From assembly GCA_963828885.1 (NCBI GenBank), contig CAWHGC010000017.1, forward strand, positions 34,522 to 98,521: 64,000 bases of DNA. Direction: 5' to 3'. Source of the DNA: an uncultured Actinomycetes bacterium (lineage in GTDB: Bacteria > Actinomycetota > UBA4738 > HRBIN12). A program made the translations under genes and the position numbers. The notes beneath the pieces are model-generated. The model ran no database searches. It saw only the letters and a program-made list of their open reading frames with translations, and had not been told where the DNA came from. Below are positions 1,142-54,020 of this stretch, piece by piece; position 1 is the stretch's first letter; every line of letters begins with the position of its first letter.

Positions 1142-1239
1142 CGCAGGGAGCGGTGATTCTCCCATCCGCCGAGCCGTCTGACAGGATGGATGTCGACGGC
1201 AACGATCGAACGGCCAGAAGAACGGAAGGACCCGACACG

Positions 1240-3953
<2,714 letters not shown>

Positions 3954-3972
<19 letters not shown>

Positions 3973-4543
3973 GCGGGCTCGGGGACCGGCGGGCGCGCCC
4001 GTTCCGGGCGCGGCGCTCGCTCCGGCCGGTGACCGAACGTGAGCCCCCGCACGAGCACCAGGAAGAACACGACCGCGCCCGTCACCAAGTAGGTCGCCCA
4101 CATCCACGGCCTCGTGGCGTCGCTGCCGGCGAAGATGCCGTGCAGCATCGACAGCGTGAACGTCGGGACGGCCAGCATGTGCAGCCGCCGCCACCACGGA
4201 TGCCGATCCGTCGCTTCGTCCACGAGGACGTCATCACGACGACCATCGCGTACATCGCGACCACGCCGATGCCGGTCGCGACCGGCCGGTACTCGGCACG
4301 GAGCGGCACCAGCAGGTCCGGCAGCCCGAACGGCATGAAGCTGTCGATCAGCAGACCGCCGAGGTGCACGCCCAGGAGCGCGAGTCCGACGGTGGCCACG
4401 AACTGGTGGAAGAGGATCGAGGTCGGCTTCGCCACGTGTTTCGTGACGAGCGAGGTGGTGGACACCAGCCCCCAGGCCACCGAGAGGAACAGCATCAGAT
4501 AGGCGCCGACGCCGGCCGCGCGCAGCACGATCCACGTGTTCAT
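3954..4543 (-). CDS. Ferric-reductase-like transmembrane protein (FRD/MsrQ-like), split by one frame change
   Basis: The N-terminal part MNTWIVLRAAGVGAYLMLFLS...HQFVATVGLALLGVH lies in ORF 4082..5425. The C-terminal TM part HMLAVPTFTLSMLHGIFAG...YLVTGAVVFFLVLV lies in ORF 3954..4535. The ATG at 4543 has a GGAGG Shine-Dalgarno sequence and overlaps the apbE stop (ATGA). Confidence 0.6.
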
Positions 4544-5425
4544 GCGGATGCCTCCGCGGCTCGGAGGTTCGTGCGAACGTCGCCGTCGGCGCGCACGAGG
4601 ACGACCGGGCCGGATCGCAGCGCGTCCTCGCCGGTGAGCAGCGCTCGCTTCGCGGCGATCTCGGCGAGCGCGCACGTCGGCGCCCACACGGTCGCCTGCA
4701 CGATGCCGGTGTCCGAGGGCGAGCCCGTCCTCGGGTCGATCAGGTGGTGGCGTCCGTCGCCCCACGCTCGCCGGGTCGTGCTCGAGGTCGCGATCGCACC
4801 GGCAGCCATCGACAGGCGCGCGAGACTCGTGTCGGGATCGTCGGGGTCCTCGACCTCGACGTCCACCGCTGGGGCGTCGCCGGCAAGGCGGAGGTCGCCG
4901 CCGGCGTTCACGAGCGCCCACGGCAGTCCCGCGGCGACGGCCGCGCCGGCCGCGAGGTCCACCGTCCACCCCTTCGCGACGCCGCCGAGGTCCAGGCCGA
5001 CGCCGGGCGGCAGACGCAGCTCGCGGCCCTCGAGGGAGACCTCGCGCCAGCGGCCGCAGGCGACCGGCGGCCGGAGCGCGCCACGCGCGCCGGCGATCAG
5101 CTCGTCGAAGTCCCGGTCGTAGCCGGCGGCCGTGACGGCCGCGAGCACCGTCGGGTCGAACAGGCCGCCGCTGTCGGCCGCGCGCTCGAGGGCGAACGCG
5201 AGCGAGCTCGGCGAACGGCGCCGACACCGTCGTCGACGAACCCGCCGACGCGTTCACCCACGAGAGCTCGCTGTCGGCGCGGAACCGCGAGTACCGGCGC
5301 TCCTCCCGCTCGAAGATCGTCTCCACTTCGCGGATCGCGAGGGACACGGCGACCGCGGGCGCCCGGTCGTCGTCGACGACGAGCGTCACGGAGGTGCCCA
5401 TCGCGCGGAAGGCGTGCCGCAGCAT
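4540..5425 (-). CDS. apbE: FAD:protein FMN transferase ApbE, split by one or two frame changes
   Basis: The N-terminus MLRHAFRAMGTSVTLVV is the ApbE signature start. The C-terminal 200 aa, with LDLGGVAKGWTVD and HHLIDPRTG, lie in ORF 4540..5148. The middle section is read in the wrong frame. Confidence 0.7.
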
Positions 5426-5751
5426 CAGGAGCCGCCCGTCGAGGTCGTGACGGGTGGCGCGGAGGTCGAGCCCCCGCCGCCCGCCGAGGTCGAAGACGAC
5501 GACCCCTGCGAGATCGTGATGGGCGCGGCGGGGGCGTCCGTGATGATCACGCGCCGCACGATCTTCTTCACGATCACCACAGGCCGTTGTCTCGGCCGGC
5601 GCGGTGACGTCTCGATCGAGGATGCCACCTTGGGCGCCGCACCGAAGATGCCGAGGCCGGTCAGGAACGTCGCGCCCCCGGCCACCCAGGCCACCGCACG
5701 GACGCGCCCCTTCGAGAGGCGCGTCCGCTTGCGGGGAGCGGTGTCAGTCAT
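5425..5751 (-). CDS. Small single-TM membrane protein with a Ser/Thr/Gly-rich tail
   Basis: MTDTAPRKRTRLSKGRVRAVAWVAGGATFLTGLGIFGAAPKV... Its start overlaps the stop of the upstream gene and its stop overlaps the apbE start. Confidence 0.4.
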   Translation of the reverse strand: MTDTAPRKRTRLSKGRVRAVAWVAGGATFLTGLGIFGAAPKVASSIETSPRRPRQRPVVIVKKIVRRVIITDAPAAPITISQGSSSSTSAGGGGSTSAPPVTTSTGGS

Positions 5752-6152
5752 CGACGCCGCCGGGGCCCGAGTTCTCCGAGCCGGGTCCGGAGTTGACCGA
5801 GCCGGGGCCCGAGTTGCCGTCGTCACCGTGGTCGTCGTTCGCGTCCTCGACCTCGACCCCGTCGTCACCGTGGTCGTCGAAGGCGTCGTGCAGGGCGCCG
5901 TCGTCGGTTCCGCCACCGGACGTCCCGTTCGACGTGTTCACGACGGCCCCGCCGTTGCCATCGCGCCTGCCGGTGGATCGTCACCGTGCGGGTCCGCGTC
6001 TTCACGATGGGCTTCGCCTTGGCCGCCGGTGCAGTGGTGCCGCTCGAGGCCTGGCCCGATGCCGGGCCGGATCCCGCCGCGACGGCGATGCCGCCCACCA
6101 CGAGTGCCGCCGTGAGTCCGAGCGCCATCAGAACCGCTGATCGCTTGTTCAT
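5744..6152 (-). CDS. Secreted acidic His/Asp-repeat protein, split by one frame change
   Basis: A signal peptide MNKRSAVLMALGLTAALVVGGIAVAAG follows a GGAGGA Shine-Dalgarno sequence. After a shift near 6000 the sequence continues as ...DDGALHDAFDDHGDDGVEVEDANDDHGDDGNSGPGSVNSGPGSENSGPGGVDD. The DNA shows three tandem GPGS-encoding repeats at 5761-5815. Confidence 0.5.
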
Positions 6153-6258
6153 ACCGTTCCTCCTCTGGTCGTGGTTCCCGGTTGACACGACCAAGCTACG
6201 GAGGCGGCGTGCAGCGACGGCACAACCGACGGTTAAGCGGGCGGTAAGCCTCCGAGCG

Positions 6259-6951
6259 CTACGTGATCGAGGCGCTGAGCACGGGATCGGTCGTCGGCGC
6301 GCTCGGGCACGAGGCCGACTCCACCGTCACCAGCATCGTGTCGGTCTGTCCGATGTCGGCCGGGACGTAGGTCAGGACCCGGCCGTCGGTCGGCCGGACG
6401 CAGCCGCCGGAGACGGGGGCCTGCGAGCCCTGCACCATCCAGATCTCGTACGCCCGGCCGGGGCCGGGATCGGGCAGGTCGGAGCCGAAGAACACCGCGC
6501 CGGGCTTCCCCGGCTGGTAGGACATCGCCAGGGTGCCGGCGTCGCCGGAGAAGGTGATCAGCTTCGGCGTCCCGCCGCCCGAGTCGAGGGCGCTGTGCAC
6601 GACCCAGCCGCCGGCGAAGAGCACGAACGCCGCGGCGACGGCGACGACGCGGGTCCACGATCGCCGCTGCCGTCGTTCGGTCAGATCGATCGGCGCGTCC
6701 GGCGCGGCCTCCGCGGTCGCCGTCCGGAGGATGTCGTCGGCCATGCCGGCCCGGACCGGGACCGGCTCCAGCGACAGGCCCAGACGTCCGGCCACCTCCC
6801 GGAACCCGGCCTCGAGGCGCGCGCACTCCTCGCAGTCGGCGCCGTGCGAGGCGCGTTCGCGGTCGAGCAGCGCCCGGTCGGCGTCGTCGAGCCCGCCGAG
6901 CGCGTCCACGCTCAGCAGCTCCTCGATCACCGTGTGGTCGCGCTGCATCAT
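6259..6951 (-). CDS. Anti-sigma factor (RskA-like, zinc-binding)
   Basis: Intact 230 aa with an HGADCEECARLEA Cys motif, a TM segment and an extracytoplasmic C-terminal domain. It has an ATGA overlap with the upstream sigma gene. Confidence 0.75.
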   Translation of the reverse strand: MMQRDHTVIEELLSVDALGGLDDADRALLDRERASHGADCEECARLEAGFREVAGRLGLSLEPVPVRAGMADDILRTATAEAAPDAPIDLTERRQRRSWTRVVAVAAAFVLFAGGWVVHSALDSGGGTPKLITFSGDAGTLAMSYQPGKPGAVFFGSDLPDPGPGRAYEIWMVQGSQAPVSGGCVRPTDGRVLTYVPADIGQTDTMLVTVESASCPSAPTTDPVLSASIT

Positions 6952-7526
6952 CGCTCCATCCCCGTCAGGGCCCCGCGCAGCCGCCGCATCCCCAGCAGGG
7001 TGCGGGACTTCACCGTGCCGAGCGGCAGCCCGAGCTCGGCCGCGATCTGCGACTGCGACCTGCCGCCGAAGTACATGAGCTCGATCACCTGCCGCTGGTC
7101 GGGCGGCAGCTCGCCGAGGGCGGCGCGGACGGCCGCGCGCTCCTCGGGGGCGCCGACCTCCTCGACGACCTGCTCGGCGGGGTCGGGCTCGGTCTCCATG
7201 GCGCCGGGGATCGCCCGCTCCGCGCGCCGGCGGTGCGCCTCCTCCCGCCGCACGAGGTCGACCGCCCGGTGATGGACGGTGCCCATCAGCCAGGACTTCA
7301 CCGACCCGCGCTGCTGGTCGTACCCGTCCGGGTTCTTCCAGAGCGCCATGAACGCCTCCTGCACGATCTCCTCCGCCAGGTTCGACTGCCGGACGACGCG
7401 CAGGGCGAGGGCCTTCGCGGCCGGCGCGTACCGGCCGAACAGGCCGCGGAACGCCTCCTGATCGCCCCTGCCGACGCGCAGGACGAGGTCGCGGTCCCGG
7501 GCCTCGGCGAGGTCAAGCGAGGGCAT
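6948..7526 (-). CDS. ECF-type RNA polymerase sigma factor
   Basis: Sigma-70 regions 2 and 4 are present (DLVLRVGRGDQEAFRGLFGRYAPAAKALALRVV ... DQRQVIELMYFGGRSQSQIAAELGLPLGTVKSR). The start is taken at MPSLDLAE. Confidence 0.8.
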   Translation of the reverse strand: MPSLDLAEARDRDLVLRVGRGDQEAFRGLFGRYAPAAKALALRVVRQSNLAEEIVQEAFMALWKNPDGYDQQRGSVKSWLMGTVHHRAVDLVRREEAHRRRAERAIPGAMETEPDPAEQVVEEVGAPEERAAVRAALGELPPDQRQVIELMYFGGRSQSQIAAELGLPLGTVKSRTLLGMRRLRGALTGMER

Positions 7527-7649
7527 CGACGCGCCCCGGTTCCGCTCGATGTGCCGCCCGGCAGGTGGTGCGAACGCCGTCGCTCCCGTCGTCGTCATGA
7601 CCTGCGTGTGATTCGCATCGTCCGGGCCGTCGGATCGTTGCGGCCACGC

Positions 7650-8453
7650 TCAGGCCCCGGGTCGCTCCGACATGCGGCGGGTCGCCTCGGCGATCATCTC
7701 GTCGAGCGTGACCGGGTCCCCGGGGTCGTACAGGGCGCTGCCGACGTCCAGGGACAGCGGCGCGGAGCGATCCGGACGAGCGTTGGCGACGGCGATCGCC
7801 TCGATCAGGCGAGACAGGACGGCGGCCTCCGATCCCTGCGCGGCGCCGGTCAGCAGGACCGAGAAGGTGTCCTCGGCGACCCGCGCCGGCACGTCGGCGT
7901 CGCGGACCGCCTGCCGGAGGACCGCGGCCGCGTCGGTCACGTCGGCGAGGTCGGCGAGCCGCACGAACAGGAACACGACCGGCTCGCTCGTCCGGTCGGC
8001 CATCCGCAGGTGATGCTCGGCGATCGGCGCGAAGCCGCGCAGGTTCGGCAGACCGGTGGCCTCGTCGACGATCTCGAGGTCGCGCAGCTGCCGGCGCAGG
8101 CGGTGCCGCTCGACGGCGTGACGCAGGAGCCGCGGCACCATGCTGTCGGGGATCTCGCCGCGCGTGATGCGGTCCTCGGCGCCGCCGCGGACGGCCTCCT
8201 CGGCCTCGCGCTGCTCGCCGGGCTCGGCGATCACGACGACCGGGACGTCGGCGCGTCGGTCGCGAACGGAGGCGAACGCGTCGCCGTCGAGGGCGAGCAG
8301 CAGGACGTCGATGCCGCCGGCGTCGAGCCGGGCGAGCGTCGCCTCGAGGTCGTCGGCCCGCTCGACCGTCATGCCCTCGCGCGCGAGCTCCTCGGCGATC
8401 CGGTCGGCGCCCTCGGAGGGGTCGGCCACCAGCACGGTCGGTTGCCTCGTCAT
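7650..8453 (-). CDS. Response regulator with a receiver domain and a degenerate GGDEF-like output domain
   Basis: Receiver motifs (PTVLVADPSEG...DVLLLALDGD) are followed by a GGDEF-like fold in which the catalytic motif is replaced by AEDTF (RVAEDTFSVLL). An SD GAGAGGA precedes the ATG at 8453. Confidence 0.65.
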   Translation of the reverse strand: MTRQPTVLVADPSEGADRIAEELAREGMTVERADDLEATLARLDAGGIDVLLLALDGDAFASVRDRRADVPVVVIAEPGEQREAEEAVRGGAEDRITRGEIPDSMVPRLLRHAVERHRLRRQLRDLEIVDEATGLPNLRGFAPIAEHHLRMADRTSEPVVFLFVRLADLADVTDAAAVLRQAVRDADVPARVAEDTFSVLLTGAAQGSEAAVLSRLIEAIAVANARPDRSAPLSLDVGSALYDPGDPVTLDEMIAEATRRMSERPGA

Positions 8454-8584
8454 GGGTCCTCTCGTCGTCTCGTCGCTCTGGGCGTGCGGATTATGCCACC
8501 CCACGCGGGCGCCACACTTCCGTCACACGAACGCCACCGCCGCATGCTGGTGCCCCCCGGCGGGGCGCCGGTACGCTGGATGTC

Positions 8585-10068
8585 ATGCCGAGTGCGCCGA
8601 ACGAGCCCACCACGTCCGCGCCGAAGGGCCACGGCCGCACCGTCCGGATCTTCCTCGCCATCACCGCGAGCCTGTCGTTGCTCGTGGGTGTCGCCGGCGG
8701 GATCAGCTATCGCGAGCTATAAGGCGGTGGAGGGCGAGGGCGTGAACGACGGAGTTCTACGATCCGGACCCCAGCGCCTCGCCCGGCGCGGATCGACCGA
8801 CCGGACCCTGCGTGAACAACGTCTGCAACTATCTGATCCTCGGCAGTGACTCTCGCCAGGGACTCACGCAAGAAGGAGCAGATCGAGTTCGGCACCAACG
8901 GCGACATCGGAGGCTCGAACCGCTCGGACACGATCATGCTCGTGCACACGCGATCCATCGCAGCAGAAGGCCGCGATCATCTCCTTCCCCCGTGACCTCT
9001 GGGTGAACATCCCGGGCGTCGGTGAGGACAAGATCAACGCCGCGTTCCAGGGAGGCGTCGACGGCGGCGGGCCGGAGCTGGTCGCGAAGACCGTGCACGA
9101 GATCACGGGACTGAGGATCAACCACTACGTCTACGTCGACCTCGCGGGGTTCCAGAACATCGTCGACACGCTCGGCGGCGTCCAGATGTGCATCCCGGCC
9201 GAGAACGTGAACACCCCCGGCTGGGTGCGATGGTCCCGACGGCCCGGTCTTCTACCACCAGCAGGGCTACATCGCCGACCCGTACACCGGGCTGCTCGTG
9301 AAGCCCGGCTGCCAGCTCCTCCACGGAGACCAGGCGCTGGCGTACGTCCGGACCCGGCACCTCAAGTGCGACGCGGTGCCCGACTTCGCCCGCATCAACC
9401 GGCAGCAGGAGTTCCTCCGCGCGGTCATCAACCGGTTGCTGCAGCCATCCGAGCTGATCAAGGCGCCCTCGCTCATCCGGCCGGTGCTCGGAAGCCTCAA
9501 GCGCGACGACAAGCTCACACCCGTCGATCTGGCGTTCCTCGTCAGCCAGCTCCAGGGGATGAGCACCGGCGCGGCGGAGTTCCGATCGGTCCCCGGCACC
9601 GTCGGGACCGAGCAGCCCTCGTGGTCGAGCATCCCGCTGTCGGTCGTGCACATGGATCCGTCGGCCGAGCAGATCTTCGCGGCGCTGCGCGACGGCAAGC
9701 CGCTGCCGAAGGCCGGGACGAGCCTCGAGGGCGTCGAGATGTCGGCGGCCAACATCACCGTGCCGGTCGTCGACCACGACTCCGCCGGCAAGGCGACGGG
9801 CGTCAACACCGTCCTCTCGGACGCCGGCTTCATCGCGCCGGGCATCACGGACTACGCGACCTACGGCGCCGACGTGAAGGGCTCGGTCATCGCGTACGAG
9901 CCCGGGCATGACGCGGAGGCGCAGGTCGTCGCGAAGTACTTCCCCGGCCTCAAGCTCGTGGAGACGCCGAAGGACGCGCTCCCCGGCACCGACGTGGCGG
10001 TCTTCGTGACGGCCGCCTACACCCCGCAGCAGCCCGGGAGCGGGCCCGGCACCACCACCTGCGCGTAG
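8585..10068 (+). CDS. LytR-CpsA-Psr (LCP) family cell-wall glycopolymer ligase, split by about 5 frame changes
   Basis: N-terminal TM segment MPSAPNEP...IFLAITASLSLLVGVAG. LCP core motifs NYLILGSDSRQ, SNRSDTIMLVH, ISFPRDLWVNIPGVGEDKINAAFQGG and LGGV are spread over three frames. The C-terminal LytR_C-like part is intact in ORF 9298..10068. Confidence 0.7.
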
Positions 10069-10088
10069 CGGCCCTGTATCGTGCCCTG

Positions 10089-11150
10089 ATGCGAGCGCTG
10101 GTCCTGTCGGGCGGGGAGGGCTCCCGCCTGCGGCCGATCACCCACACGAACGCCAAGCAGCTGATCCCGGTCGCCGGCACGCCGATCCTGTTCCACGCCC
10201 TCGCGTCGATCAGCGATGCCGGCATCACCGAGGTGGGCCTCGTGGTCGGGCCGCCGAACGAGGACGAGGTCCGCGCCGCCGTCGGCGACGGCTCGCGCTG
10301 GGGGCTCGACCTCGTCTTCATCCATCAGCCGGCGCCGCTGGGCATCGCGCACGCGGTCATGATCGCCGCCGACTTCGTGCGCGGCGCCCCGTTCCTGCTG
10401 TACCTGGGCGACAACGTCCTGCTCGAGGGCGTCGCGCGCTTCGTCGAGGAGTTCGACCGGACGGCGCCCGACGCCCAGATCTTCCTCGCCCGCGTCCCGG
10501 AGCCGGAGCACTTCGGTGTCGCGATCCTCGAGGGGGAGCGGGTCGTTCGGCTGGTCGAGAAGCCGAAGGAGTGGATCTCCGACGTCGCGCTCGTCGGCGT
10601 GTACCTGTTCCGTGATTCGATCCTCGAGGCCTGCGCGACGCTGCAGCCGTCGTGGCGCAACGAGTACGAGATCACCGAGGCGATCCAGTGGCTGATCGAC
10701 AACGGCCGCACGGTCCGCGCCGAGATGGTGAGCGGATGGTGGAAGGACACCGGCAAGCCCGAGGACCTCCTGGAGGCCAACCGCATGATGCTCTCGCTCG
10801 TGCGGCCGCGCGTCGACGGCGAGGTCGACGACGCCTCCACCGTGAACGGCGCCGTCGTCGTCGAGGCCGGCGCGAAGGTGACGAACAGCACCGTCAACGG
10901 CCCGGTCGTGATCGGTCCCGACTGCGTCGTCGACGGTTCCGTCATCGGGCCCGAGGTCTCCCTCGAACGCGGCTGCCGCGTGACGTCGTCGACCGTCACC
11001 GACTCGATCGTGATGGAGGGGTGCTCGATCGACCGCGTGCGCGGGCTCACGGGCTCGATCCTCGGGCGCGGCAGCGACGTGCGGCACTCGGGCGGCGAGG
11101 GAGCGCACCGGCTCATCGTCGGCGACCAGTCCCGGGTCGAGGTCGACTGA
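10089..11150 (+). CDS. rmlA: Glucose-1-phosphate thymidylyltransferase (long form)
   Basis: Intact 353 aa; MRALVLSGGEGSRLRPITHTNAKQLIPVAG is the nucleotidyltransferase signature, followed by a C-terminal beta-helix. Confidence 0.85.
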   Translation: MRALVLSGGEGSRLRPITHTNAKQLIPVAGTPILFHALASISDAGITEVGLVVGPPNEDEVRAAVGDGSRWGLDLVFIHQPAPLGIAHAVMIAADFVRGAPFLLYLGDNVLLEGVARFVEEFDRTAPDAQIFLARVPEPEHFGVAILEGERVVRLVEKPKEWISDVALVGVYLFRDSILEACATLQPSWRNEYEITEAIQWLIDNGRTVRAEMVSGWWKDTGKPEDLLEANRMMLSLVRPRVDGEVDDASTVNGAVVVEAGAKVTNSTVNGPVVIGPDCVVDGSVIGPEVSLERGCRVTSSTVTDSIVMEGCSIDRVRGLTGSILGRGSDVRHSGGEGAHRLIVGDQSRVEVD

Positions 11151-16034: not shown

Positions 16035-17080
16035 GGATCGCGGTCCTGCACCCGCAGACCGCGTTCTCACGCGGCGGAGCCGAGACCCACACCGAGGCGC
16101 TCGTCCGGGCCTTGAAGGTCGCCGGGCACGAGGCCGAGCTCGTCTCGATCGCCGGCAAGTGGTACCCGGCGTGGGAGCTCGCGCACCAGATGGCCGTGTG
16201 GCGCTCCTTCGACATCACCGAGTCCAACGGGCTGAAGGTCGACGCCGTCATCGCGCTGAAGTTCCCGGCGTACCTCGTGCAGCACGAGCGCAAGATCGTC
16301 TGGCTGATCCACCAGCACCGCAGCGCGTACGAGCTGTGGGACCATCCGCGGTTCGCCGACCTGTCGCTGCAGGAGGACGGACCCGCGGTGCGCGACATGG
16401 TCTGGCAGGCCGACCGGGTCGCGCTCGGCGAGGCGAAGCGCATCTTCACGAACTCCCGCAACGTGCAGGACCGGCTCTGGGGCTCGATGCGGCTGTCGAG
16501 CGACGTCCTGTATCACCCATCGCCGCCGACCCTCGCGCTGCTCGGCGAGGAGCCCGGCCCGTACGGCGACTACGTCTTCCTGCCGGGCAGGCTGGAGGCC
16601 CTGAAGCGCCAGCACCTCGTGATCGAGGCGATGCGTCACACGAAGAGCGACGTCCGGCTCGTGCTGGTGGGGTCCGGGCCCGACGAACAGGCCCTGCGTG
16701 ACCAGGTGCGGGCGGCCGGCCTCGGGTCGAAGGTGTCGTTCGAGATCGCCGTCTCCGACGAGCGGCTCCATCAGCTGTACCTGGGCGCGCTCGCCGTCCA
16801 CTACGGGCCGTTCGACGAGGACTACGGGTACGTGACGCTCGAGGGGTTCGCGGCCCATCGCCCCGTCGTGACGACGACCGACGCCGGCGGCCCGCTCGAG
16901 TTCGTCACCGACGGCGAGACGGGCCTCGTGACGCCGCCCGACCCGAAGGCGATCGCGGAGGCGTTCGACCGGCTGTACGCGGACCGGGCGCTGGCGGGGC
17001 GCCTCGGCGCCGCCGGCAACGCCGTCGTGCGCGAGCGCGTGCCGGCCTGGCCCGACGTCGTCGCACGGCTGCTGGACTGA
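16031..17080 (+). CDS. Glycosyltransferase family 4
   Basis: VRIAVLHPQTAFSRGGAETH... GT4 features. The N-terminal 57 aa of the six-frame ORF are Arg-rich overlap and are not taken as coding. Confidence 0.75.
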   Translation: MRIAVLHPQTAFSRGGAETHTEALVRALKVAGHEAELVSIAGKWYPAWELAHQMAVWRSFDITESNGLKVDAVIALKFPAYLVQHERKIVWLIHQHRSAYELWDHPRFADLSLQEDGPAVRDMVWQADRVALGEAKRIFTNSRNVQDRLWGSMRLSSDVLYHPSPPTLALLGEEPGPYGDYVFLPGRLEALKRQHLVIEAMRHTKSDVRLVLVGSGPDEQALRDQVRAAGLGSKVSFEIAVSDERLHQLYLGALAVHYGPFDEDYGYVTLEGFAAHRPVVTTTDAGGPLEFVTDGETGLVTPPDPKAIAEAFDRLYADRALAGRLGAAGNAVVRERVPAWPDVVARLLD

Positions 17081-17085
17081 GCTCG

Positions 17086-18464
17086 ATGGCGGCGCGCGCG
17101 AAGGACCTGGCCCGCCGCGGGGTCGCCGCGCGACGCCGGCGCCGGGCGCAGGAGGCCCAGCGGAACCCGCGCATGGGGTTCTTCGCGCCGCTGCCGCCGG
17201 CGCCGACCGGCGTCGCCACGTACTCGCAGGCGGTGCTGGACGGGCTCCGGCCGGATCGGCTTCTTCGAACGGCACCGCATGGACGTGGAGTGGCCGCCGG
17301 AGCCGCGGCACGAGGGCCTCGTGCCCTGGTACCGGCTCGGCGTCTACTCGCTCGGGAACAACGTGCGCTTCCACCGCGACCTCTACCGCTTCGCGTGCGG
17401 CGCGCCGGGGCTGATCGTGCTGCACGACCTCGCGCTCGACGACTTCGTGCGCGGCATGAAGGTGGAGGGCGACCCGCTCGGGTTCGTCGCCGAGCGCGAG
17501 GCCGAGCGCCTGGCGCCGAACCTCCACTCCGAGGACGTGCTGCGCAACGAGCCGCTGCGCATGCCGTGGGCCGGCCACGTGCTGCGCCGCTCGCGCGGCG
17601 TCATCGTGCACAGCGACTTCGGCCGGCGCTACGTCGAGGAGCTCGGCTCGCGGACGCCGGTGTTCGTCGTGCCGCATCCGGTCGTCGAGTCCGACGCCGA
17701 CATGGAGCGCGCGCGGCGGCACGCGCCGGCGCTGCGGGCACCGCTCGAGGCCCGCGGCGCCCGCACGGTGATCGTCGCGCCCGGCGACCTGAACGAGGCG
17801 AAGCAGCTCGGCGCGCTCCTCGCCGCCGCACGGCTCCTGCCCGAGGACGTGCACGTGGTGATGGTCGGCCGGCGCATCGAGGGCTACGACGCCGACCGCG
17901 AGGTCGCGGCGAGCGGCCTGGGCGGGCGGGTGACGCTCGCGCCGGACGTGAGCGACGACGACTTCCGCGGGTGGCTGTGCGCGGCCGACGTCGCCGTCGA
18001 CCTTCGGTTCCCGCACCGCGGCGAGGTGAGCGGCTCGCTCGCGCGCGCGATGCAGGCCGGGCTGCCGGCCGTCGTCAGCGCCACCGGCACCTACCTCGAC
18101 GTGCCGGACGAGCTGGTGCTGCGGGTGGCGCCGGGTCCGACCGACCCGAGCGAGCTGGCGGCGCAGCTGCGGCTGCTGATCGACGACGAGGGCCTCCGCG
18201 TCCGGATGGGCGCGGCCGCGCGCGACCACGTCGAGGAGCGTGCGCGCCTCGGAGGCCACCGCGCACGGGTACGAGCGGGCGATCGTGGAGACCCTCCGCC
18301 TGGTCCGAGATCCCGTCCGGAAGGCCGAGGCCCGCTGGTCCGGCGCCCTCGCCGACATCGGCGTCGGCGAGCCCGAGGTCCGCGCCGGCTACGGCGTCGG
18401 GTACGCGCGGGCGCTCGAGAGCTTCCGGGGCGGAGCACCCGCGGGGCCGCCCGAATCGCCATAG
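17086..18464 (+). CDS. Glycosyltransferase family 4, split by two frame changes
   Basis: The N-terminus MGFFAPLPPAPTGVATYSQAVLDGL and most of the body lie in ORF 17279..18517. The C-terminal 70 aa lie in ORF 18240..18464. Confidence 0.6.
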
Positions 18465-18603: not shown

Positions 18604-19440
18604 ATGCTCCGGCGCATCCGCGAGCTCGCCGCCCACCGCGAGATCCTGCTGAACCTGGTCCGCAAGGAGCTGAAGGTCAAGTACACGGCCTCGGTGCTGG
18701 GCGCGGTCTGGTCGCTGCTGAACCCGGTCGTCTTCCTCGCCGTGTTCTCGTTCGTCGTCGTCGTCACCGGCAACGCGCTGCCGCACTATCCGGTGTATCT
18801 GCTGTCGGGGCTGCTCGCATGGAACCTGTTCAGCAACTCGCTGCTGCAGGGAGCGCGGTCGGTCGTCGACAACGCGAGCCTCGTGAAGAAGGTCTACTTC
18901 CCCAGGGAGATCCTGCCGCTCGCCTCGATCGGCGTGACCTTGGTGGACTTCGTCCTGCAGTCGGCCGTGCTGCTGTTGTTCATGCTCGTGACCGGCTACG
19001 GCTTCCATCTCCACGTGCTGTGGATGTACCCGCTCGCCGTCGCCACGCTGCTGGTGTTCACGCTCGCCGTGACGCTCTGGGTGGCGGGCCTGAACGTGCG
19101 CTACCGGGATGTGCAGCACCTGCTGAACCTCGGTCTGCTCGTCTGGTTCTGGATGACGCCCATCGTGTACCCGGGCGCCCTGGTCCAGGAGTATCTGACC
19201 GGCAAGGCCGATGTCCTCTGGAACCTCTTCCTGTTGAACCCGCTCGCCACCATCGTGTTCGGCTTCCAGCGGGCGCTGTACGGCGTGGTCAGCCCCAACG
19301 GTGAGGACGTCCTGCCGCAGGTCTCGCTGCGGTGGATGGGCGGCATGCTGCTGCTCGTGCTGACCTGCTCGCTGCTGCTGCTCTCGTACACGTGGCGCCT
19401 CTACTTCCGCCTCTCCGGCGACTTCGCGGAGGAGCTGTGA
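18604..19440 (+). CDS. wzm: ABC-2 type polysaccharide export permease (Wzm/TagG-like)
   Basis: Intact 278 aa, six TM segments, ABC-2 family N-terminus RKELKVKYTASVLGAVWSLLNP. Confidence 0.85.
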   Translation: MLRRIRELAAHREILLNLVRKELKVKYTASVLGAVWSLLNPVVFLAVFSFVVVVTGNALPHYPVYLLSGLLAWNLFSNSLLQGARSVVDNASLVKKVYFPREILPLASIGVTLVDFVLQSAVLLLFMLVTGYGFHLHVLWMYPLAVATLLVFTLAVTLWVAGLNVRYRDVQHLLNLGLLVWFWMTPIVYPGALVQEYLTGKADVLWNLFLLNPLATIVFGFQRALYGVVSPNGEDVLPQVSLRWMGGMLLLVLTCSLLLLSYTWRLYFRLSGDFAEEL

Positions 19441-20599
19441 CGGCCGCCATCGAGATCGAGCACGTCTCCAAGGTCTTCCGCCTGTTCCGCGAGAAGCCCT
19501 CCTCGCTGAAGGCCCGCCTCATCAGCTCGCGCTCGCGCGCGGAGGACTTCTGGGCGCTGCGCGACATCAGCTTCGAGATCCGCGAGGGGGAGTCGCTCGG
19601 CCTGATCGGCCACAACGGCAGCGGCAAGACCACGCTGCTGAAGGTGATCGCCGGCATCATCCGCCCGACCGAGGGGGTCGTTCGCAGCCGCGGCCGCCTG
19701 GCGCCCCTGCTCGAGCTCGGCGCCGGCTTCCACCCGGAGCTGACCGGCCGCGAGAACGTCTACCTCAACGCGTCGTTCCTCGGGCTCACACGCAGGGACA
19801 CCGACCGCGTGTACGAGGACATCGTGGAGTTCGCCGAGATCCCCGACTTCATGGACAACCAGGTGAAGTTCTACAGCTCGGGCATGCTCGTGCGGCTCGG
19901 GTTCGCGGTCGCCGTGCACGTGGATCCCGAGATCCTCCTGGTCGACGAGGTCCTCGCCGTCGGCGACGAGGCCTTCCAGGCCAAGTGCCTGAGCCGGATC
20001 CGCGGCTTCCAGCGCGAGGGCCGCACGATCGTGCTCGTCACGCACGCCCTCGACGTCGTGTCGCAGGTCTGCGACCGGGCCGTGATGCTCGACCACGGCG
20101 AGCTGTACGCGAAGGGCAACCCGACCGACGTCGTGCGCGAGCTCCGGTACGCCCTGCTGAGCAACGACCCCAACTTCGTCGCCGAGGAGGGCACGCGCGA
20201 GGTCGAGCTCGCCGGCGTCGAGCCTGATCCGCGAGGACGGCACCACCGAGCGGCCGGTGCGGCTGGGCGAGGACCTCACGATCCAGATCGACGCCCGCGC
20301 GAACCAGACCGTCGACGACCTCGTGGCGAGCTTCCAGGTCCTGGACTCGGCGAACCTATCCCGTCGTGGACGGCCGGGAGCCGATCGGCCACATCGAGGG
20401 CAAGAAGCGCATCCGCTTCATCCTCCGGCGCCTGTCGCTCGTGCCCGGCCGCTACTTCGTGACGGTCGGCCTCGAGGCCGGCGAGTCCGGCCGCCTGCTG
20501 CACGTGCAGACGCAGCGATACTGGTTCGAGGTCGTCGACGAGGAGCGCCCGCACCACGAGGGGGAGATCCGCGTCGACGCCGCAACGGAGGACCTGTGA
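19437..20599 (+). CDS. wzt: Polysaccharide ABC transporter ATP-binding protein (Wzt-like) with a C-terminal carbohydrate-binding domain, split by two frame changes
   Basis: Walker A GHNGSGKT, signature YSSGMLVRLG and Walker B LLVDEVLAVGD are present. The C-terminal domain (...YWFEVVDEERPHHEGEIRVDAATEDL) lies in ORF 20366..20599, with the linker in a third frame. The GTG start overlaps the wzm stop. Confidence 0.75.
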
Positions 20600-21900: not shown

Positions 21901-22918
21901 GAAGGCCGTCGTCCTGGTCGGCGGCGAGGGCACCCGCCTGCGGCCGCTCACGCTCACCACGCCGAAGCCGCTGATCCCCGTGATGGACCGGCGGTTCCTG
22001 GACCTCGTGCTCGACCTGCTGGCGCGCCACGGCGTGCAGGAGGTCGTGCTGTCCTCGCCCTACCTCGAGGAGACGTTCCGGTCGTTCGTCGACGTCGCGC
22101 CGCGACCACCTCCCCGCCGATCCGGTGGATCACCGAGACCGAGCCCCTCGGCACCGGCGGCGCCGTCGTGAACGCCCTCGACCACCTCGGACGACGACGA
22201 CCTCGTGTTCGCGCTGAACGGCGACATCCTCACCGACCTCGACCTGACCGCGATGCTCGAGTTCCACCGGCAGCGCGGCGCCTCCGTCACGATCTCGCTC
22301 ACCCACGTCGAGGACGCCCGGCCCTTCGGCCTCGTCCTCACCGAGGCCGACGGCCGCGTGCGCGAGTTCCTGGAGAAGCCCGCCGACCCGATCCCCGGCG
22401 ACGTGAACGCCGGCACGTACCTGATCGACCCGGCGGTGCTGCACGGCTTCGCGCGCGGGGAGGCGTTGTCGATCGAACGCCAGATCTTCCCGGCGGTGAT
22501 CGCCGACGGCCGGCCCGTGTACGGGTTCGTCTCCGACGCCTACTGGATGGACCTCGGCACGCCGGAGAAGTACCTCCAGGGACACTTCGACATCTTCGAG
22601 GGGCGGGTGCGCGACCTCGAGTACCCGGCGCCGTGGGTGCACCGGGCCGCCGACGTCCACCTGCGCGCGCACCTCGGGCGGTGGGTGGCGGTCGGCGCCG
22701 GCGCGGTGGTCGGGGAGGACGCGACGGTCGAGGACTCGGTCGTGCACCCGGGCGGCCGGATCGGGGCGGGGGCCCGGGTCGTGAGCTCGATCGTCGGTGC
22801 GAACGCACTGGTCGGAGCCGGTGCGACGGTCGTCGACTGCGTCCTCGGGGAGGGCGCGGAGGTCGCGGCGGGTGCGCTCATCGAGGGCGATCGGGTCGCC
22901 GGACCGTCCGCACGCTGA
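21898..22918 (+). CDS. NDP-sugar pyrophosphorylase (mannose-1-phosphate guanylyltransferase-like), split by two frame changes near 22100-22200
   Basis: MKAVVLVGGEGTRLRPLTLTTPKPLIPV, then EPLGTGGAVVNALDHL in a second frame, then the rest including a beta-helix C-terminus in ORF 22205..22918. Confidence 0.7.
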
Positions 22919-22988
22919 GTCCCGGGCGGCCCGGAACGATGTGGTACGGTGCCGGGCCCGGGGCCTCCCGGCCCCTCCCCATCACCTG

Positions 22989-24704
22989 ATGCGAAGAGCC
23001 GCACTCCTCGTCGCCGTCTCCCTCGTCGCTTCCCTGGGCGTCCTCCCGGCCGCGCCGGCCGGTGCCGCCGGGTCGTTCACCTTCTACGGCTCCGGCTTCG
23101 GGCACGGTCTCGGGATGTCGCAATGGGGGGCCTACGGCCTCGCGAAGGACGGCTGGGCGCACAAGAAGATCCTCACCCACTTCTACTCGGGCACCGTCGT
23201 GAAGCAGGCCTCCTCGCCGCCCAAGAACCTCCGGATCGGGCTCACGCAGGGACAGTCGAAGGTGCATCTCACCGCCGAGGCAGGACCCGTCACGATCCGC
23301 GTCGAGGATCCGAAGACCGGCACGGAGGTCGGCACGATCCCGAAGGGGAAGACCTGGACCGTGCGCGAGGCCGGCGACGAAGTACCGCGTGCTGAACTCG
23401 GCGGGCAAGCGCGTCGGCGGCAAGGACTGGGGCGGCACGGCACGGGACCTGTTCGTCACGTACGCCGGCGCCCGGGTGCGCTCGGCCGCTGCCGGCGCCA
23501 CCTACAACCGTGGCTTCATCGAGTTCAACCTGTACTCGTGCGCCGGGAGCTGCGCGATGCGCATGATCCTGGTGGTCGCGCCCGAGGCCTACCTCCTCGG
23601 GCTCGGGGAGGTGCCGAGCAGCTGGCCGATGGCCGCGCTCCGCGCGCAGGCGGTGGCGGGCGCGGTCCTACGCCCTCAACAAGGTGGAGTCCGGGCAGCA
23701 CCGCGCCGGCTGCAACTGCGGCCTGTACGACTCGTCGCTGGACCAGGTCTACATCGGGTGGGCGAAGGAGGGCGGCTCCCAGGGCGACCGCTGGGTGCAC
23801 GCGGTGCACCAGACCGGCGGCCAGATCGTCGCGTTCTCCGGCGACGTGATCCCGGCCTTCTACACCTCCTCCGACGGCGGCCACACGGAGAACAACGAGA
23901 ACGTCTGGGGCGGAACGCCGCTGCCGTATCTCAGGGGCGTCTGCGATCCCGGCGACTACACCTCGGCGAACCCGAGCGCCGTGTGGAAGGTCTCGTACTC
24001 GGCGGGGTCGGTGACGAACCGCCTCGCCGGCTACACCGGCAACATCGGCACCGTGTCGGGGTTCACCGACTTCGACCGCGGCGTGTCCGGGCGCATCATC
24101 ACGGTCCGCGTGGAGGGGAAGAACGGCTCGGACGTGATCAGCGGCGCGCAGTTCCGCGCGGGCCTCGGGCTCAAGGACGACCGCGTGTGGGTGAATCGCG
24201 ACAAGAACGTGACGGGGCGGATCCGCGCGACCTACGACGCCGCCTCGTGCGCGCCCGGCCTGCCCACCTCGCCCGAGGTCGACGTGCCGGGCGGCAGCCG
24301 CCAGCTCTTCGAGACCGGCGCGATCTACCGAAACACGGGCGACGTGACCGTGTGGCTGAAGGGCGCCGTCTTCGACGAGTACACGGCGGTGGGCGGCGCC
24401 GGCGGCCGACTCGGCCTGCCCACGTCGAAGGTGGTGCACGGTCACGGGCGTCACCGGATGCGCGGCGGGGTGCAGCCGGACCTCGTTCGTGCGCGGACGG
24501 ATCTACTGGAAGTCGGGCGTCGGCGCCAACGCCCTGTGGGGCCGCGTGCTGGACACGTTCCTCGCCCACAACGGCGTCGACGGGTCGCTGGGGTTCCCGA
24601 CCTCGCGCGTGCAGGTGGCGGACGACGGCAGCGCGTCGGCCACCTTCGAGCACGGCTCGATCGAGTGCCCGCCGCCCGACGGCGGGGACTGCACGATCAG
24701 CTGA
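22989..24704 (+). CDS. SpoIID/LytB-domain protein with C-terminal LGFP repeats, split by about 3 frame changes
   Basis: A signal peptide is followed by SFTFYGSGFGHGLGMSQWGAYGLA (SpoIID). A large central part lies in ORFs 23389.. and 23684... LGFP repeats (GGRLGLPTSKVV, GSLGFPTSRVQ) are at the end. Confidence 0.65.
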
Positions 24705-25521
24705 CGCTCAGCACTCGCCCGAGGACGTCGGCTCCGGCGCGTTGCTCGGTGCATTCGAAGGCCGTCATGAAGCCCTTCGCGATCGTGGTGGCCTGACTCG
24801 CCGTCACGGTGCCCGGGCAGGTGAGCAGTTTGTTCCACGCCGTCACGGCGAAGCCGACGCCCGTCGGCAGCGACGTGTGCGGCGTGAGGATCACGTGGTG
24901 CTTCGTGTCGTTGTTCGCGACCGTCGTGAGCGCGCTCGATCACGTCCGGTGGCAGCGCGCCGTCGCCGTCCGGCCGGTAGTAGATGTTCACGAACGCGTG
25001 CTCGAGGTTGTGCACGAGCCGCGTCTCGGGCGGCATCTCGGTGTACACGGCCGGGGTGGTCGGCAGTCGGGGACGGATCGTGCGGTCCCGACGTCGCCGG
25101 CTCCTCCGGATACACGTGCGTCGCGCCGGAGGCCAGGTGCATGCCGTCGGGCGCGCTGCCGACCGGCGTCTCCACGCCGGTGCAGCCGGCCGCCTTCGCC
25201 GCGTCGGCCGCGGCCGCCGGGAACGGATTCGGCGCCGCCCACGCGGGTGAACCAGGTGAAGACGCCGATCGCCACCGCCGCCACCACCACCGACAGCACG
25301 AACCGCCGTGCGGTGTCGCGCCGCCGCTGTCTGCGCATCGCGGCCTCGCGCGCGGCGCGCGCCTGCTGCTTGCGCTCCTGCCGGTCGGCGCGCGGCCGGT
25401 TCTGCTGGTGCGGGCGCCCGGCCGCGGTGCCCTGGCCGTCACCGCTCGCGGATCTGCCCGGACCTTGGCTCGCTGCGCCGCTCGGGCGGTGCGGACGACG
25501 GCGCCGCTTCTTGTTCGCCAT
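24697..25521 (-). CDS. DUF3105 family membrane-anchored protein, paralog 2, split by about 3 frame changes
   Basis: MANKKRRRRPHRPSG... basic N-terminus plus a TM segment (FVLSVVVAAVAIGVF). DUF3105 core HNLEHAFVNIYYRP. The start overlaps the stop of paralog 1 (TGATG). Confidence 0.55.
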
Positions 25522-26247
25522 CAGAGCACGGACCCGGCCTCGGGCGCCTCCCCGGCGTAGGTCTGGCCCGCCGCCGGCGGTGCGCTGTACTTCGACGTGA
25601 ACGCGAACGCGACCGGCAGGCTCACCGACGAGCAGGTCTGCATGCGGTGCCAGGCCACGAGCGCCATCTGCACGCCGTCGGGCAGCTGGCCGGCCGTTCC
25701 CTGGTCCGGGTAGCTGTACGGCGCGATGATCACGCGGTCCTGCCCGATGGCGGCCGCCGAGACCTTCCGGTCGTAGAAGGACTTCAGCTCGTCCAGCGCG
25801 GCGCCGCTCGTCGTCGGGTCGTACCAGATGATCGTGGCGCCGTGCTCGAGGCTGTGGATCGCCCGGTAGATGTCGGGCGGCGAGGAGTAGACGCCGGCCG
25901 GCAGGGGGCCGGGTCCATCGGGCGGCAACGCAGCATGCGGCCCGGAGGTCGGCGGCACGGACGGGTAGGTGGAGAGCTTCGGCGGGGTCGGGAACTGGGC
26001 GTGGTTCCGATGTGCGTCTGATCGACGTACTTCGAGTTCGTGACATCGGAGATGTCGTCGTAGGCCGGGATCGTCTGGACGTCGGTGCAGCCCGCGGTCT
26101 TCGCGGCCGCCGGCGCCTGTTTGAGCAGATCGGAGGCCTGCGCCTGGGTGGGCTCCTCGCCGGCGAACGGCTGCAGCACCACGAGGGCCACGATCAGGCC
26201 GGCGGCCACCACGAGCGCGATGCCGCCCAGGAGCCGGCCGCGGCGCT
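25521..26247 (-). CDS. DUF3105 family membrane-anchored protein, paralog 1, split by one frame change
   Basis: MAKQRRGRLLGGIALVVAAGLIVALVV ... then HSLEHGATIIWYDPTTSGAALDELKSFYDRK... in ORF 25521..26447. Confidence 0.6.
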
Positions 26248-26539
26248 GCTTGGCCATCTTCCGCTGGATCTCCTCGCGCTTGAGGCGGGCCTCCTCGCGC
26301 CGTTCCGCCTTCGTGATCCGGCGGTTCGGGTCCTCGCGTTCCGGCACGGATCGCTCCTGGGTCGTCGACGGGTGGGGCGCCTCGATGCGGTGCCCCGACG
26401 GCGACCAAGGATACGGGACGAGGGACCGGAAAGGTCGTTCGGGCCATTGCGGCCGAGGGGAGCGCTTCCTATCCTGTGCCTCGCCTTCCCCGATGGAACG
26501 GCGTGCCGGCGGCATCCCGCCGGCGAGGAGGGGGGGCGT

Positions 26540-32560: not shown

Positions 32561-32572
32561 CACGCCGATCCG

Positions 32573-32598
32573 TCAAGCATCTTGACCGAATAGGTCAA
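32573..32598 (+). promoter_or_regulatory. Nested TTGAC dyads GTCAAG-cat-CTTGAC and TTGACC-gaata-GGTCAA in the fbiC-whiB intergenic region
   Basis: Two overlapping inverted repeats. Three further CCCCTTG(A/T)C copies follow at 32600-32716. Confidence 0.4.
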
Positions 32599-32769: not shown

Positions 32770-32997
32770 GTGCACCACTACATCCCTTGGCAAGAGCGGG
32801 CGCGATGTCGCGAATACGACCCTGAGACGTTCTTCCCCGAGAAGGGAGGTTCATCGAGGGAGGCAAAGCGGATCTGCTCCGAGTGCCCCGTTCGGATCGA
32901 GTGCCTCAACTACGCGCTCCGCCGCGATGAGCGGTACGGGGTGTGGGGAGGCATGAGCGAACGGGAACGTCGACGCCTCAAGCGGATGGCGTCCTAG
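32770..32997 (+). CDS. whiB: WhiB-family transcriptional regulator (Fe-S, WhiB2/WhmD-like by context)
   Basis: Four Cys in the WhiB arrangement (ARCREYDPETFF...ICSECPVRIECLNYAL) and a GVWGG turn with a basic tail. GTG start with AGGGGGGAGA Shine-Dalgarno sequence. Confidence 0.9.
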   Translation: MHHYIPWQERARCREYDPETFFPEKGGSSREAKRICSECPVRIECLNYALRRDERYGVWGGMSERERRRLKRMAS

Positions 32998-39997: not shown

Positions 39998-40027
39998 CGC
40001 CGAGCCGGTTCAGTACCATGCGGTGAC

Positions 40028-41382: not shown

Positions 41383-41557
41383 TGACGATCGACGCCGAGC
41401 TGCTGGAGATCCTGGTGTGCCCGAACGACCGGGGGGAGGTGGAGTACCTCGAGGCCGAGCAGGTCATCGTGTGCTCCACGTGCGGCTACCGCTATCCGGT
41501 GCGCGACGGTATCCCCGTCATGCTGATCGACGAGGCAGAGAAGCCGGGCGCGGCGAA

Positions 41558-41561
<4 letters not shown>
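41382..41561 (+). CDS. Trm112-family small zinc-ribbon protein
   Basis: LEILVCPNDRGEVEY...VIVCSTCGYRYPVRDGIPVML. Its ATG overlaps the pmm stop. Confidence 0.7.
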
Positions 41562-44742
<3,181 letters not shown>

Positions 44743-53971: not shown

Positions 53972-54020
53972 GAACCGGCCTCCCACCGGCGCCGAGCCGC
54001 CGCGCCTCTATGATGCGTCG

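Follow-up and report, generated by a model that had tools for sequence, protein, structure and literature searches.

A conserved four-gene ApbE operon of uncultured Actinomycetota with a candidate flavin tag at the C-terminus of a small membrane-anchored protein

The DNA considered here is a stretch of 64,000 nucleotides (nt) from an uncultured Actinomycetes bacterium (GenBank assembly GCA_963828885.1, contig CAWHGC010000017.1, positions 34,522 to 98,521 of the forward strand), which is referred to as the window. Near its beginning the minus strand carries four translationally coupled genes, which encode an N-terminally anchored protein with an acidic tail (SEC), a small protein with a single transmembrane (TM) helix, an enzyme of the ApbE family, which transfers flavin mononucleotide (FMN) to proteins, and a membrane cytochrome of the FRD/MsrQ kind (FRD). 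This operon is regarded, with moderate confidence and from sequence analysis, as a small transmembrane electron-transfer device in which the tail of the small TM protein would be the flavin site used by ApbE. Three further genes of the same strand, for a response regulator (RR)-like protein, an extracytoplasmic function (ECF) sigma factor and its anti-sigma factor, lie upstream, and all seven minus-strand genes reported in an initial annotation of the locus are present. The features of the locus are the following, with position 1 as the first letter of the window.

7650 to 8504, minus strand: RR-like protein that combines a REC domain with a degenerate GGDEF domain and lacks a DNA-binding domain (Pfam GGDEF at 1.9e-11; Response_reg at 24 bits, below its gathering score).
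7610 to 7635, minus strand: promoter-like motif of the SigK (autoregulatory) type, ATCCGA-N14-GCGAATC, which precedes the sigma gene.
6948 to 7598, minus strand: SigK-like ECF sigma factor, with its start at 7598 or 7526 (Pfam Sigma70_r2 and r4_2).
6259 to 6951, minus strand: RskA-type single-pass anti-sigma factor (Pfam RskA_C at 43.7 bits, gathering score 29.4; NCBIfam anti-sigma model at 88 bits).
6193 to 6237, minus strand: conserved upstream element CTTAAC-N6-TTG-N21-TAnnnT, 45 nt long and about 85 nt 5' of the SEC start codon; a candidate promoter or operator.
5744 to 6152, minus strand: SEC, N-terminally anchored, with an acidic tail (recognized with its orthologue set; frame broken by an extra C at 5963).
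5759 to 5816, minus strand: 21-nt tandem repeat in 2.8 copies, encoding the NSGPGS units of the SEC tail (Tandem Repeats Finder).
5425 to 5751, minus strand: small TM protein of 108 residues, intact and identical to the database entry P0001.
5428 to 5439, minus strand: codons of the T-G-G-S at the C-terminus, proposed as the motif that accepts FMN (putative acceptor Ser108).
4540 to 5425, minus strand: leaderless ApbE of the FAD:protein FMN transferase family, where FAD is flavin adenine dinucleotide (frame broken by an extra C at 5202; Pfam ApbE at 6.5e-49 after repair).
3954 to 4543, minus strand: FRD/MsrQ-like membrane cytochrome with five predicted TM helices (one base missing near 4198).

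Neighbouring genes share four start/stop overlaps, at 6951 (4 nt), 5751/5744 (8 nt), 5425 (1 nt) and 4543 (4 nt); these had been noticed in the initial annotation and are also kept in relatives. The comparisons are based on a scan of species-representative genomes that yielded 80 loci, all of them in uncultured Actinomycetota-type metagenome-assembled genomes (MAGs) and with a best aligned segment of at most 67 % identity. SEC, TM, ApbE and FRD are syntenic in about 60 of the 80 loci, which corresponds to about 60 species-level genomes, and a check of their co-occurrence finds the four genes strongly co-conserved. The overlap between SEC and TM is 8 nt in 35 of 40 loci, that between TM and ApbE is mostly 1 or 4 nt, and that between ApbE and FRD is 4 nt in 59 of 61. 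The conserved unit is the group of four translationally coupled genes SEC, TM, ApbE and FRD, and the arrangement appears to be widespread in uncultured soil Actinomycetota and occurs also in some Chloroflexota-assigned MAGs. A search of positions 3700 to 8800 found no sigma-70 promoters or intrinsic terminators, a result that is uninformative at a GC content of 72 %. Rfam gave no match over positions 3954 to 8504, and the idea that the SEC leader contains a known RNA such as a riboswitch was rejected on this ground. At the far end of the operon, FRD and the convergent aconitase gene (1153 to 3972, plus strand) share 19 nt at their 3' ends, from 3954 to 3972.

The identification of ApbE is straightforward once the frameshift is repaired. 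With the extra base removed, the product matches Pfam PF02424 at 167 bits (gathering score 25.6, E = 6.5e-49) over positions 1-250 of the 266 in the profile, which confirms the initial assignment, and ApbE/Ftp structures in the PDB are matched at E-values down to 1e-17 in alignments that cover the catalytic HH motif. Across 62 sequences the HH motif (which corresponds to His257 of V. cholerae), GG[IV]AKG, AGGD and ATS are invariant or nearly so. A signal peptide or lipobox is found on ApbE in none of the 62, and every orthologue starts no more than 15 residues before the sequence FRAMGT; the extracytoplasmic ApbE pictured in the initial annotation is not borne out. The 120 best database homologues of ApbE are 283-316 residues long, except for two of 384 and 388 residues.

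Two routes by which the enzyme might be exported were considered and rejected. The first, a programmed frameshift or a fusion between TM and ApbE, was discarded on the spacing between the TM stop and the ApbE start, which ranges from -8 to +4 nt and more, and on the lack of any conserved shift signal; the second, co-export of ApbE with a small TM protein bearing a Tat signal, was discarded on the lack of conservation of the twin arginine, several orthologues having KKPRWS or KRPRWS at this site. Leaderless ApbE homologues with 39 % identity are also present in two Streptosporangiaceae MAGs (L065 and L070, at about 7990-8920), with no adjacent FRD or tail-tag gene; there they follow an MshA-like glycosyltransferase and a small conserved protein, and they are possibly a different kind of orphan ApbE.

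The FRD-type assignment made in the initial annotation is supported as well. Ferric_reduct (PF01794) is present on most of the 120 FRD homologues listed, with the products of the loci L081 and L082 flagged as weak. The two histidine pairs H46/H60 and H122/H135 are invariant both in a set of 52 and in a set of 64 sequences; they occur in predicted helices 39-66 and 115-140, which are two non-adjacent TM helices, and their spacings of 14 and 13 residues mark them as putative bis-His heme sites of the NOX type. An AlphaFold2 (AF2) model of FRD contains five TM helices with a predicted local distance difference test score (pLDDT) of 85, and the PDB structures matched by Foldseek with the best probability are STEAP2, DUOX1, STEAP1 and the S. 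pneumoniae NOX (SpNOX). The K/R-rich loops and the C-terminus of FRD are taken to face the cytoplasm, which is the authors' reading of the loop charges and not the output of a tool. Pfam detects no NAD-binding domain on FRD, and no conserved [ST]GA[ST]-like motif occurs in it.

The small TM protein, which belongs to no Pfam or NCBIfam family, starts with a basic stretch, which is followed by a single TM helix, a basic segment (RPVVIVKKIVRRVII) and a tail rich in Ser, Gly, Pro and Ala that is predicted to be disordered. The AF2 model (pLDDT 57) contains a helix at residues 14-35 only, with the rest at low confidence, and gives no information beyond this TM helix. The predicted orientation is N-in/C-out in 53 of 53 sequences, with a flank charge of +5.4 on the N-terminal side versus +0.85, where the net charge of the N-flank is compared with that of the first 15 residues after the helix.

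The feature of the tail on which the interpretation turns is its end. Among 75 open reading frames (ORFs) that end just 5' of ApbE, 67 carry a motif like TGGS, SGGS or TSGS no more than 10 residues from the end, and in 51 it forms the exact C-terminus. An independent profile search of 1.84 billion representatives produced 140 members of the TM family, and the 126 of plausible length were counted. The pattern [ST]x[GA][ST] is located at the exact C-terminus in 82 of these 126, compared with an expected count of 3.7 and a maximum of 11 in 2000 shuffles, and the motif falls within the last 8 residues in 115 (17 expected), where the expectation is generated by shuffling the last 40 residues. Some members (P0319, P0363, P0375 and P0388) end in the canonical TGAS. 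In the window, T105 and S108 provide the S/T at position -3 and the hydroxyl at position 0, and at both positions the family uses S and T interchangeably.

Endings of the form SGGS, SGVS or SGQS are also found in distant clusters of leaderless ApbE and FRD (ApbE 38-44 % identical to that of the window), on proteins 5' of ApbE that cannot be aligned with the small TM protein. These carriers, of which L069, L071, L075, L077, L078 and L079/80 provide examples, are small anchored proteins, and that of L069 is a lipoprotein with an LAGC lipobox. A NuoF-like gene (NADH-binding, of the complex I 51-kDa type) occurs in some of the distant clusters (L068 2086-3396, L071 9538-10764 and L079 at about 9600-10887), accompanied in L068 by a small ferredoxin, and it points to NADH as the cytosolic donor in the NuoF-bearing lineages. 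No NuoF-like gene lies nearby in the clade of the window.

These patterns can be set beside what is known of ApbE, which transfers FMN to the last S/T of [S/T]GA[S/T]; a seven-residue motif is sufficient for the reaction, which works best at a protein terminus, and replacement of the motif Asp by Ala has only a minor effect (PMC12052999). Flavinylation also takes place on the unstructured extensions at the C-terminus of FMN_red proteins (PMC11334425). A survey of flavinylation genes by Méheust et al. dropped ApbE and FMN-bind genes without signal peptides, and it states that some ApbE substrates are still to be identified (PMC8238504). The T-x-[G/A]-[S/T] tail is probably a natural C-terminal flavin tag carried on a disordered tether. 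The initial annotation had stated that no FMN_bind substrate is visible and that the flavinylation target was unknown. The first statement is confirmed by Pfam, in which FMN_bind, DUF2271 and DUF3570 give no hit at E-values up to 1 in the seven proteins; the second is superseded to the extent that a candidate, the C-terminal TGGS of the small TM protein, can now be named. The canonical motif D-x-x-[ST]-G-A-[ST], which had been put forward as the way to find a target, occurs in no real ORF of the window; its one hit, at 25531 on the plus strand, is in a spurious frame. Two adjacent frameshifted DUF3105-like genes (with HSLEHG and HNLEHA) occupy 24503 to 26447 on the minus strand, opposite a long spurious plus-strand ORF that ends in DPASGASPA.

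SEC belongs to no Pfam or NCBIfam family, and weak matches to DUF7096 and a pilin model, which are far below the cut-offs, were disregarded. It has an N-terminal anchor, a conserved basic strand (KPIVKTRTRTVTIHRQA) and a variable, strongly acidic tail rich in His, Ser and Gly with a net charge of about -13. Its orientation as predicted by the positive-inside rule is N-in/C-out in 39 of 42 sequences (flank charge +2.3 on the N-terminal side versus +0.1, computed as for the TM protein). In both SEC and the small TM protein the anchor is followed by a short basic segment, in which beta-branched residues are abundant, and then by a tail of low complexity. The tail of SEC ends in GDD (GATGACTGA) because the SEC stop codon overlaps the TM start. 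In one related locus (L036, 7165-7959) SEC and the small TM protein form a single ORF of 265 residues, which is either a natural fusion or another assembly indel.

The repeats of the tail, two DDHGDDG units and three NSGPG(S/G) units, are readable only once the frameshift is repaired. They and the acidity of the protein are as described in the initial annotation, which had treated the units as functional features. This part of the description does not stand, since the units are not conserved in orthologues, in which only the acidic, His-rich composition of the tail is retained; the NSGPGS repeat region differs by 21 nt, at 5815-5817, even from L081, a relative with 95 % identity.

If the tail is indeed a flavin tag, then the four products can be assembled into a simple mechanism. 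FRD would be a two-heme, bis-His cytochrome b of the NOX/STEAP/MsrQ kind, which would take electrons, probably from menaquinol or a cytosolic partner, and pass them from the inner to the outer heme. The small TM protein would sit beside it in the N-in/C-out orientation, with a disordered tether of 50-80 Pro, Ala, Ser and Gly residues, to whose terminal Ser/Thr ApbE would attach FMN through a phosphoester bond. The membrane-tethered flavin may then bind to FRD at its conserved outer face and take electrons outward. SEC would provide a second anchor, whose acidic, His-rich tail probably holds cations, or an acceptor that is cationic, close to the flavin. Because ApbE is leaderless, the most economical reading is that the tag would be flavinylated in the cytoplasm and the C-terminus then threaded across the membrane, and flavinylation before export would explain the position of the motif at the extreme C-terminus. 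A more specific and distinctly tentative form of this proposal is that cytosolic ApbE flavinylates the C-terminus of a small secretory or anchored polypeptide before its export, which would create a domain-less flavin "fishing line" whose Pro/Ala-rich stretch has the length needed to span the cell wall, loaded by a minimal two-heme FRD and feeding extracellular or wall-bound acceptors held by the acidic partner.

A number of observations weigh against the proposed device. The main difficulty is the separation of a cytosolic ApbE from an extracytoplasmic tail: the model requires either flavinylation before export or an export route for ApbE, and neither is documented. Within ApbE, the Mg2+-binding Asp (D284 of T. 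pallidum Ftp) is replaced by Glu in 62 of 62 sequences, which keeps the acidic character, and the Thr corresponding to T288 of T. pallidum is Lys in 32 and Thr in 30, with Lys in the window. The tail of the window has G, G and P/V at positions -2, -1 and -6, without the canonical Ala at -1 or Asp at -6; across the family most members have Gly at position -1 and only a minority have Ala, and no Asp is conserved. A published change of the motif Ala to Val halved flavinylation, and Gly is found at this position in the window. The AF2 model of the small TM protein contains no flavin-binding fold, and its Ser/Thr/Pro-rich tails could equally be substrates for O-glycosylation. On the side of the cytochrome, the window FRD reaches 26.5 bits against Ferric_reduct, just short of the gathering score (28), and its Foldseek matches have weak E-values (0.15-0.6).

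Several of these points are shared by the most probable of the alternatives, according to which the tail motif is not an ApbE site at all. The leaderless ApbE would then flavinylate a cytoplasmic target, such as one of the cytoplasmic loops or tails of FRD or the product of a gene elsewhere, and the T-x-G-S end would be there for O-mannosylation, to be recognized by a protease or sorting enzyme, or to make contact with FRD. Cytosolic leaderless ApbEs do exist, and those that are known act in the cytoplasm on cytosolic proteins (PMC12052999); this, the missing signal peptide in 62 of 62 sequences, the lack of the canonical Asp and mostly of the Ala in the tail, and the resemblance of the Ser/Thr/Pro-rich tail to actinobacterial O-glycosylation regions speak for this alternative. 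It is nevertheless considered unlikely, because FRD offers no conserved [ST]GA[ST]-like motif, the real ORFs of the window offer no canonical one (the single hit at 25531 being in a spurious frame), and the tail motif tracks ApbE across lineages in which the carriers are non-homologous. The members with canonical TGAS, and the interchange of S and T at the last position, which fits a hydroxyl acceptor, also speak for the tail as the site of flavinylation.

The model of the initial annotation, in which a single SigK-controlled transcript of seven genes running from the RR to FRD constitutes an envelope-stress or metal-responsive module with metal-binding SEC repeats and an unspecified flavinylation target, fares less well and is thought improbable. 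Its premise of a sigma/anti-sigma pair is sound. The sigma factor has ECF sigma regions 2 and 4 and the anti-sigma factor an RskA_C domain, as expected of a SigK-RskA pair, so that Pfam and NCBIfam support both identifications; the best NCBIfam match for the sigma factor is the SigK model PRK09646, at 155 bits against a cut-off of 226, which makes it SigK-like by similarity and not an equivalog. The overlap between the two genes is 4 nt in 21 of 23 loci. The pair lies directly 5' of SEC in the window and in 26 related loci, and no terminator-like site between genes was found. The HxxxCxxC motif of RskA is compatible with such a model, the mycobacterial SigK-RskA being redox-sensitive (PMC7509140), as is the acidic, His-rich tail of SEC.

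The comparison of loci does not sustain the seven-gene transcript. The genes do not form one unbroken chain, because two of the junctions are gaps, of at least 51 nt between the RR and sigma genes and of 106 nt between the anti-sigma gene and SEC (median 143 nt in relatives). The sigK-rskA pair is found between the RR gene and SEC in only 26 of the approximately 57 loci with enough upstream sequence and is absent from about 31, and in L001 a divergent Usp gene separates the RR gene from SEC. About 40 loci have the element CTTAAC-N6-TTG-N21-TAnnnT, each of them once and at 70-100 nt 5' of SEC, irrespective of a neighbouring sigK, and in the 64-kb window its single occurrence is that at 6237-6193. 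The motif ATCCGA-N14-GCGAATA precedes sigK in every sigK-bearing locus and never precedes SEC. Control of the module by SigK was rejected, since the SigK-type motif, which was derived from the regions upstream of sigK, is absent upstream of SEC. The four-gene module is taken to be a unit of its own because it has its own upstream element and the SigK motif is present only before sigK. The metal-binding role given to the SEC repeats meets the lack of conservation described above, which extends to the 21-nt unit by which the 95 % relative differs.

The sigK-rskA pair and the gene for the REC-GGDEF-like protein are frequent neighbours that lie outside the unit, and the sigma pair is facultative. 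The RR-like gene is present upstream in most related loci. All of its orthologues (n=33) have [AGST]x-D-[TA]-F in place of the GGDEF signature, as well as a degenerate acidic pocket, and activity as a diguanylate cyclase is unlikely to judge by these replacements. The N-terminal H-x3-C-x2-C of the anti-sigma factor (HGADCEEC, at residues ~35-42, window 6800-6850, minus strand) matches the zinc-binding and redox-sensing signature of the ZAS anti-sigma factors. A SigK-type-like sequence, ATCCGT-N13-CCGAATA, which may be due to chance, is found at 32568-32592 on the plus strand, about 200 nt upstream of a WhiB-like gene (32770-32997).

A third reading makes FRD an ordinary quinol-linked donor of the MsrQ type, which would serve an MsrP-like molybdoenzyme outside the cytoplasm or some other reductase with its gene elsewhere, and takes the small proteins for assembly or anchoring factors. 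The name YedZ/MsrQ given to FRD homologues by annotators of the Joint Genome Institute (JGI) and the lack of an NAD-binding domain on FRD are in keeping with it, but none of about 60 loci contains an MsrP-like gene, and the tightly coupled ApbE and the conserved tail motif would be left without a role, so that this reading is rated as very improbable.

The frame breaks within the operon bear on how the genes themselves are to be read. The ORF listing has SEC, ApbE and FRD changing frame in mid-gene at about 5963, 5202 and 4198, which the initial annotation had missed. Alignment with L081, an ENA contig that is 95 % identical and encodes an intact ApbE of 294 residues (P0017) and an FRD of 196 residues, attributes the changes to one surplus C each at 5963 and 5202 and to the loss of an A near 4198 in the window. 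L081 is intact at all three sites and has single-base indels of its own in SEC and TM, as well as a broken aconitase gene, and all four genes of the module are intact in Illumina-assembled relatives. At least 15 further frame switches occur in unrelated genes of the window, as found by a whole-window scan of GC phase and inspection of translations; the genes broken elsewhere include those for LCP, phosphomannomutase, SIS/PGI, an ABC ATPase, a SpoIID-like protein, a glycosyltransferase and a spermidine-synthase-like membrane protein. Switches of frame that involve no stop codon are present at 8812-10068, 16702-18464, 19305-20599, 22785-24704, 39998-41382, 41360-42623 and 53859-56241. Because the relative is intact at these sites, at least 15 other shifts occur in the window and the Illumina relatives are intact, the three indels are very probably assembly errors and not a sign of operon decay. 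The opposite view, that the operon is a decaying pseudogene cluster and the frameshifts real mutations, could appeal to the fact that 1.8 kb of sequence and three neighbouring genes contain three indels of one base each, none of them in a long homopolymer, but it is the least probable of the alternatives, given the comparable breaks in unrelated genes, GC content at third codon positions (GC3) and sequence conservation that run on undisturbed beyond each shift, and a relative that is intact at all three sites and yet broken by other indels, including one in aconitase. In an assembly so rich in indels, an ORF-level reading understates the coding content, and ORF calls across the window need frame repair.

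Elsewhere in the window, a raiA RNA motif (Rfam RF03072, 151 bits, full length) is located at 46131 to 46359 and a tmRNA gene (RF00023, 123.6 bits, full length) at 62246 to 62596, both on the plus strand. An ORF of 80 residues on the plus strand at 33187 to 33429 contains little else than Lys/Arg/Ala/Thr repeats (KKTAARKRPAAKKATAR...) and in this resembles the basic tails found in actinobacterial nucleoid proteins; long ORFs are present on the opposite strand too, and the coding status of this ORF is only putative.

The significance of the operon lies in the orphan apbE genes that surveys have left, for which it offers a testable candidate for one missing class of substrate, a four-residue C-terminal tag on a disordered tether. 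If the proposal is true, then this intrinsically disordered tag would be a new class of ApbE substrate and the prediction of substrates would extend beyond folded flavin-binding domains. There would be a new answer to the question of how Gram-positive bacteria flavinylate proteins for export while keeping FAD inside, with flavinylation before export becoming a possible mechanism, and abundant uncultured soil actinobacteria would gain a minimal device for transmembrane or extracellular electron transfer. A natural and shorter variant of the Flavin-tag would also become available for protein labelling. No published description of the four-gene arrangement was found in a literature search.

Among known systems, the nearest are the MsrQ-like flavinylation clusters of Actinobacteria surveyed by Méheust et al. 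(2021, eLife, PMC8238504), of which the operon is a variant that adds a domain-less tag carrier and an acidic partner. In both, the lineage is actinobacterial, apbE stands beside a gene for a PF01794-type protein of the six-TM, di-heme kind, the ApbE and FRD genes here overlapping by 4 nt, and transmembrane electron transfer to a flavinylated extracytosolic carrier is proposed; the survey also mentions a NuoF-like gene, which some of the distant relatives described above have too. The survey further identified clusters by an FMN_bind, DUF2271 or DUF3570 substrate and by a signal peptide on ApbE or the FMN-binding protein, neither of which is present here. In contrast to the surveyed clusters, the cytochrome has no NAD-binding domain at its C-terminus, ApbE is of the leaderless kind that was filtered from the survey, the candidate substrate is a disordered tail without a domain, and there is an extra anchored acidic protein.

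The neighbouring regulatory pair resembles the mycobacterial SigK-RskA (ECF19-type) in its 4-nt gene overlap, its RskA_C anti-sigma factor and the conserved promoter motif 5' of sigK; the known mycobacterial regulon is mpt70/mpt83/dipZ, whereas the pair is facultative here and no SigK motif precedes the module. The Klebsiella pneumoniae cytoplasmic ApbE is likewise leaderless and acts in the cytoplasm, but its substrate is a soluble cytoplasmic fumarate reductase and not a membrane-anchored protein with a tail predicted to lie outside (PMC12052999). In the flavin-based extracellular electron transfer of Listeria monocytogenes (FmnB/PplA/EetAB/Ndh2), a membrane-anchored protein of a Gram-positive bacterium similarly bears ApbE-attached FMN on the outer side of the membrane. 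The FMN_bind domains of PplA, however, are folded, FmnB is a lipoprotein that is secreted and receives its supply from an FAD exporter, and the membrane step is performed by EetA/B and demethylmenaquinone and not by an FRD cytochrome.

The closest parallels to the tag itself come from two other sources. In the FMN_red proteins (Huang et al. 2024, mSystems, PMC11334425) the motif is also placed on an unstructured C-terminal extension and apbE is adjacent, but the tail folds into the flavin-binding site of its own protein, while the carrier here has no flavin-binding domain, and the FMN_red proteins are from Firmicutes with SGAT-like motifs, compared with TGGS in Actinomycetota. With the synthetic Flavin-tag (Tong et al. 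2021, reviewed in PMC12052999), ApbE likewise needs no more than a short terminal peptide, which works best at the terminus; that tag is an engineered DxxSGAT, and the tail described here, with no Asp and with Gly in place of Ala, would be its natural counterpart.

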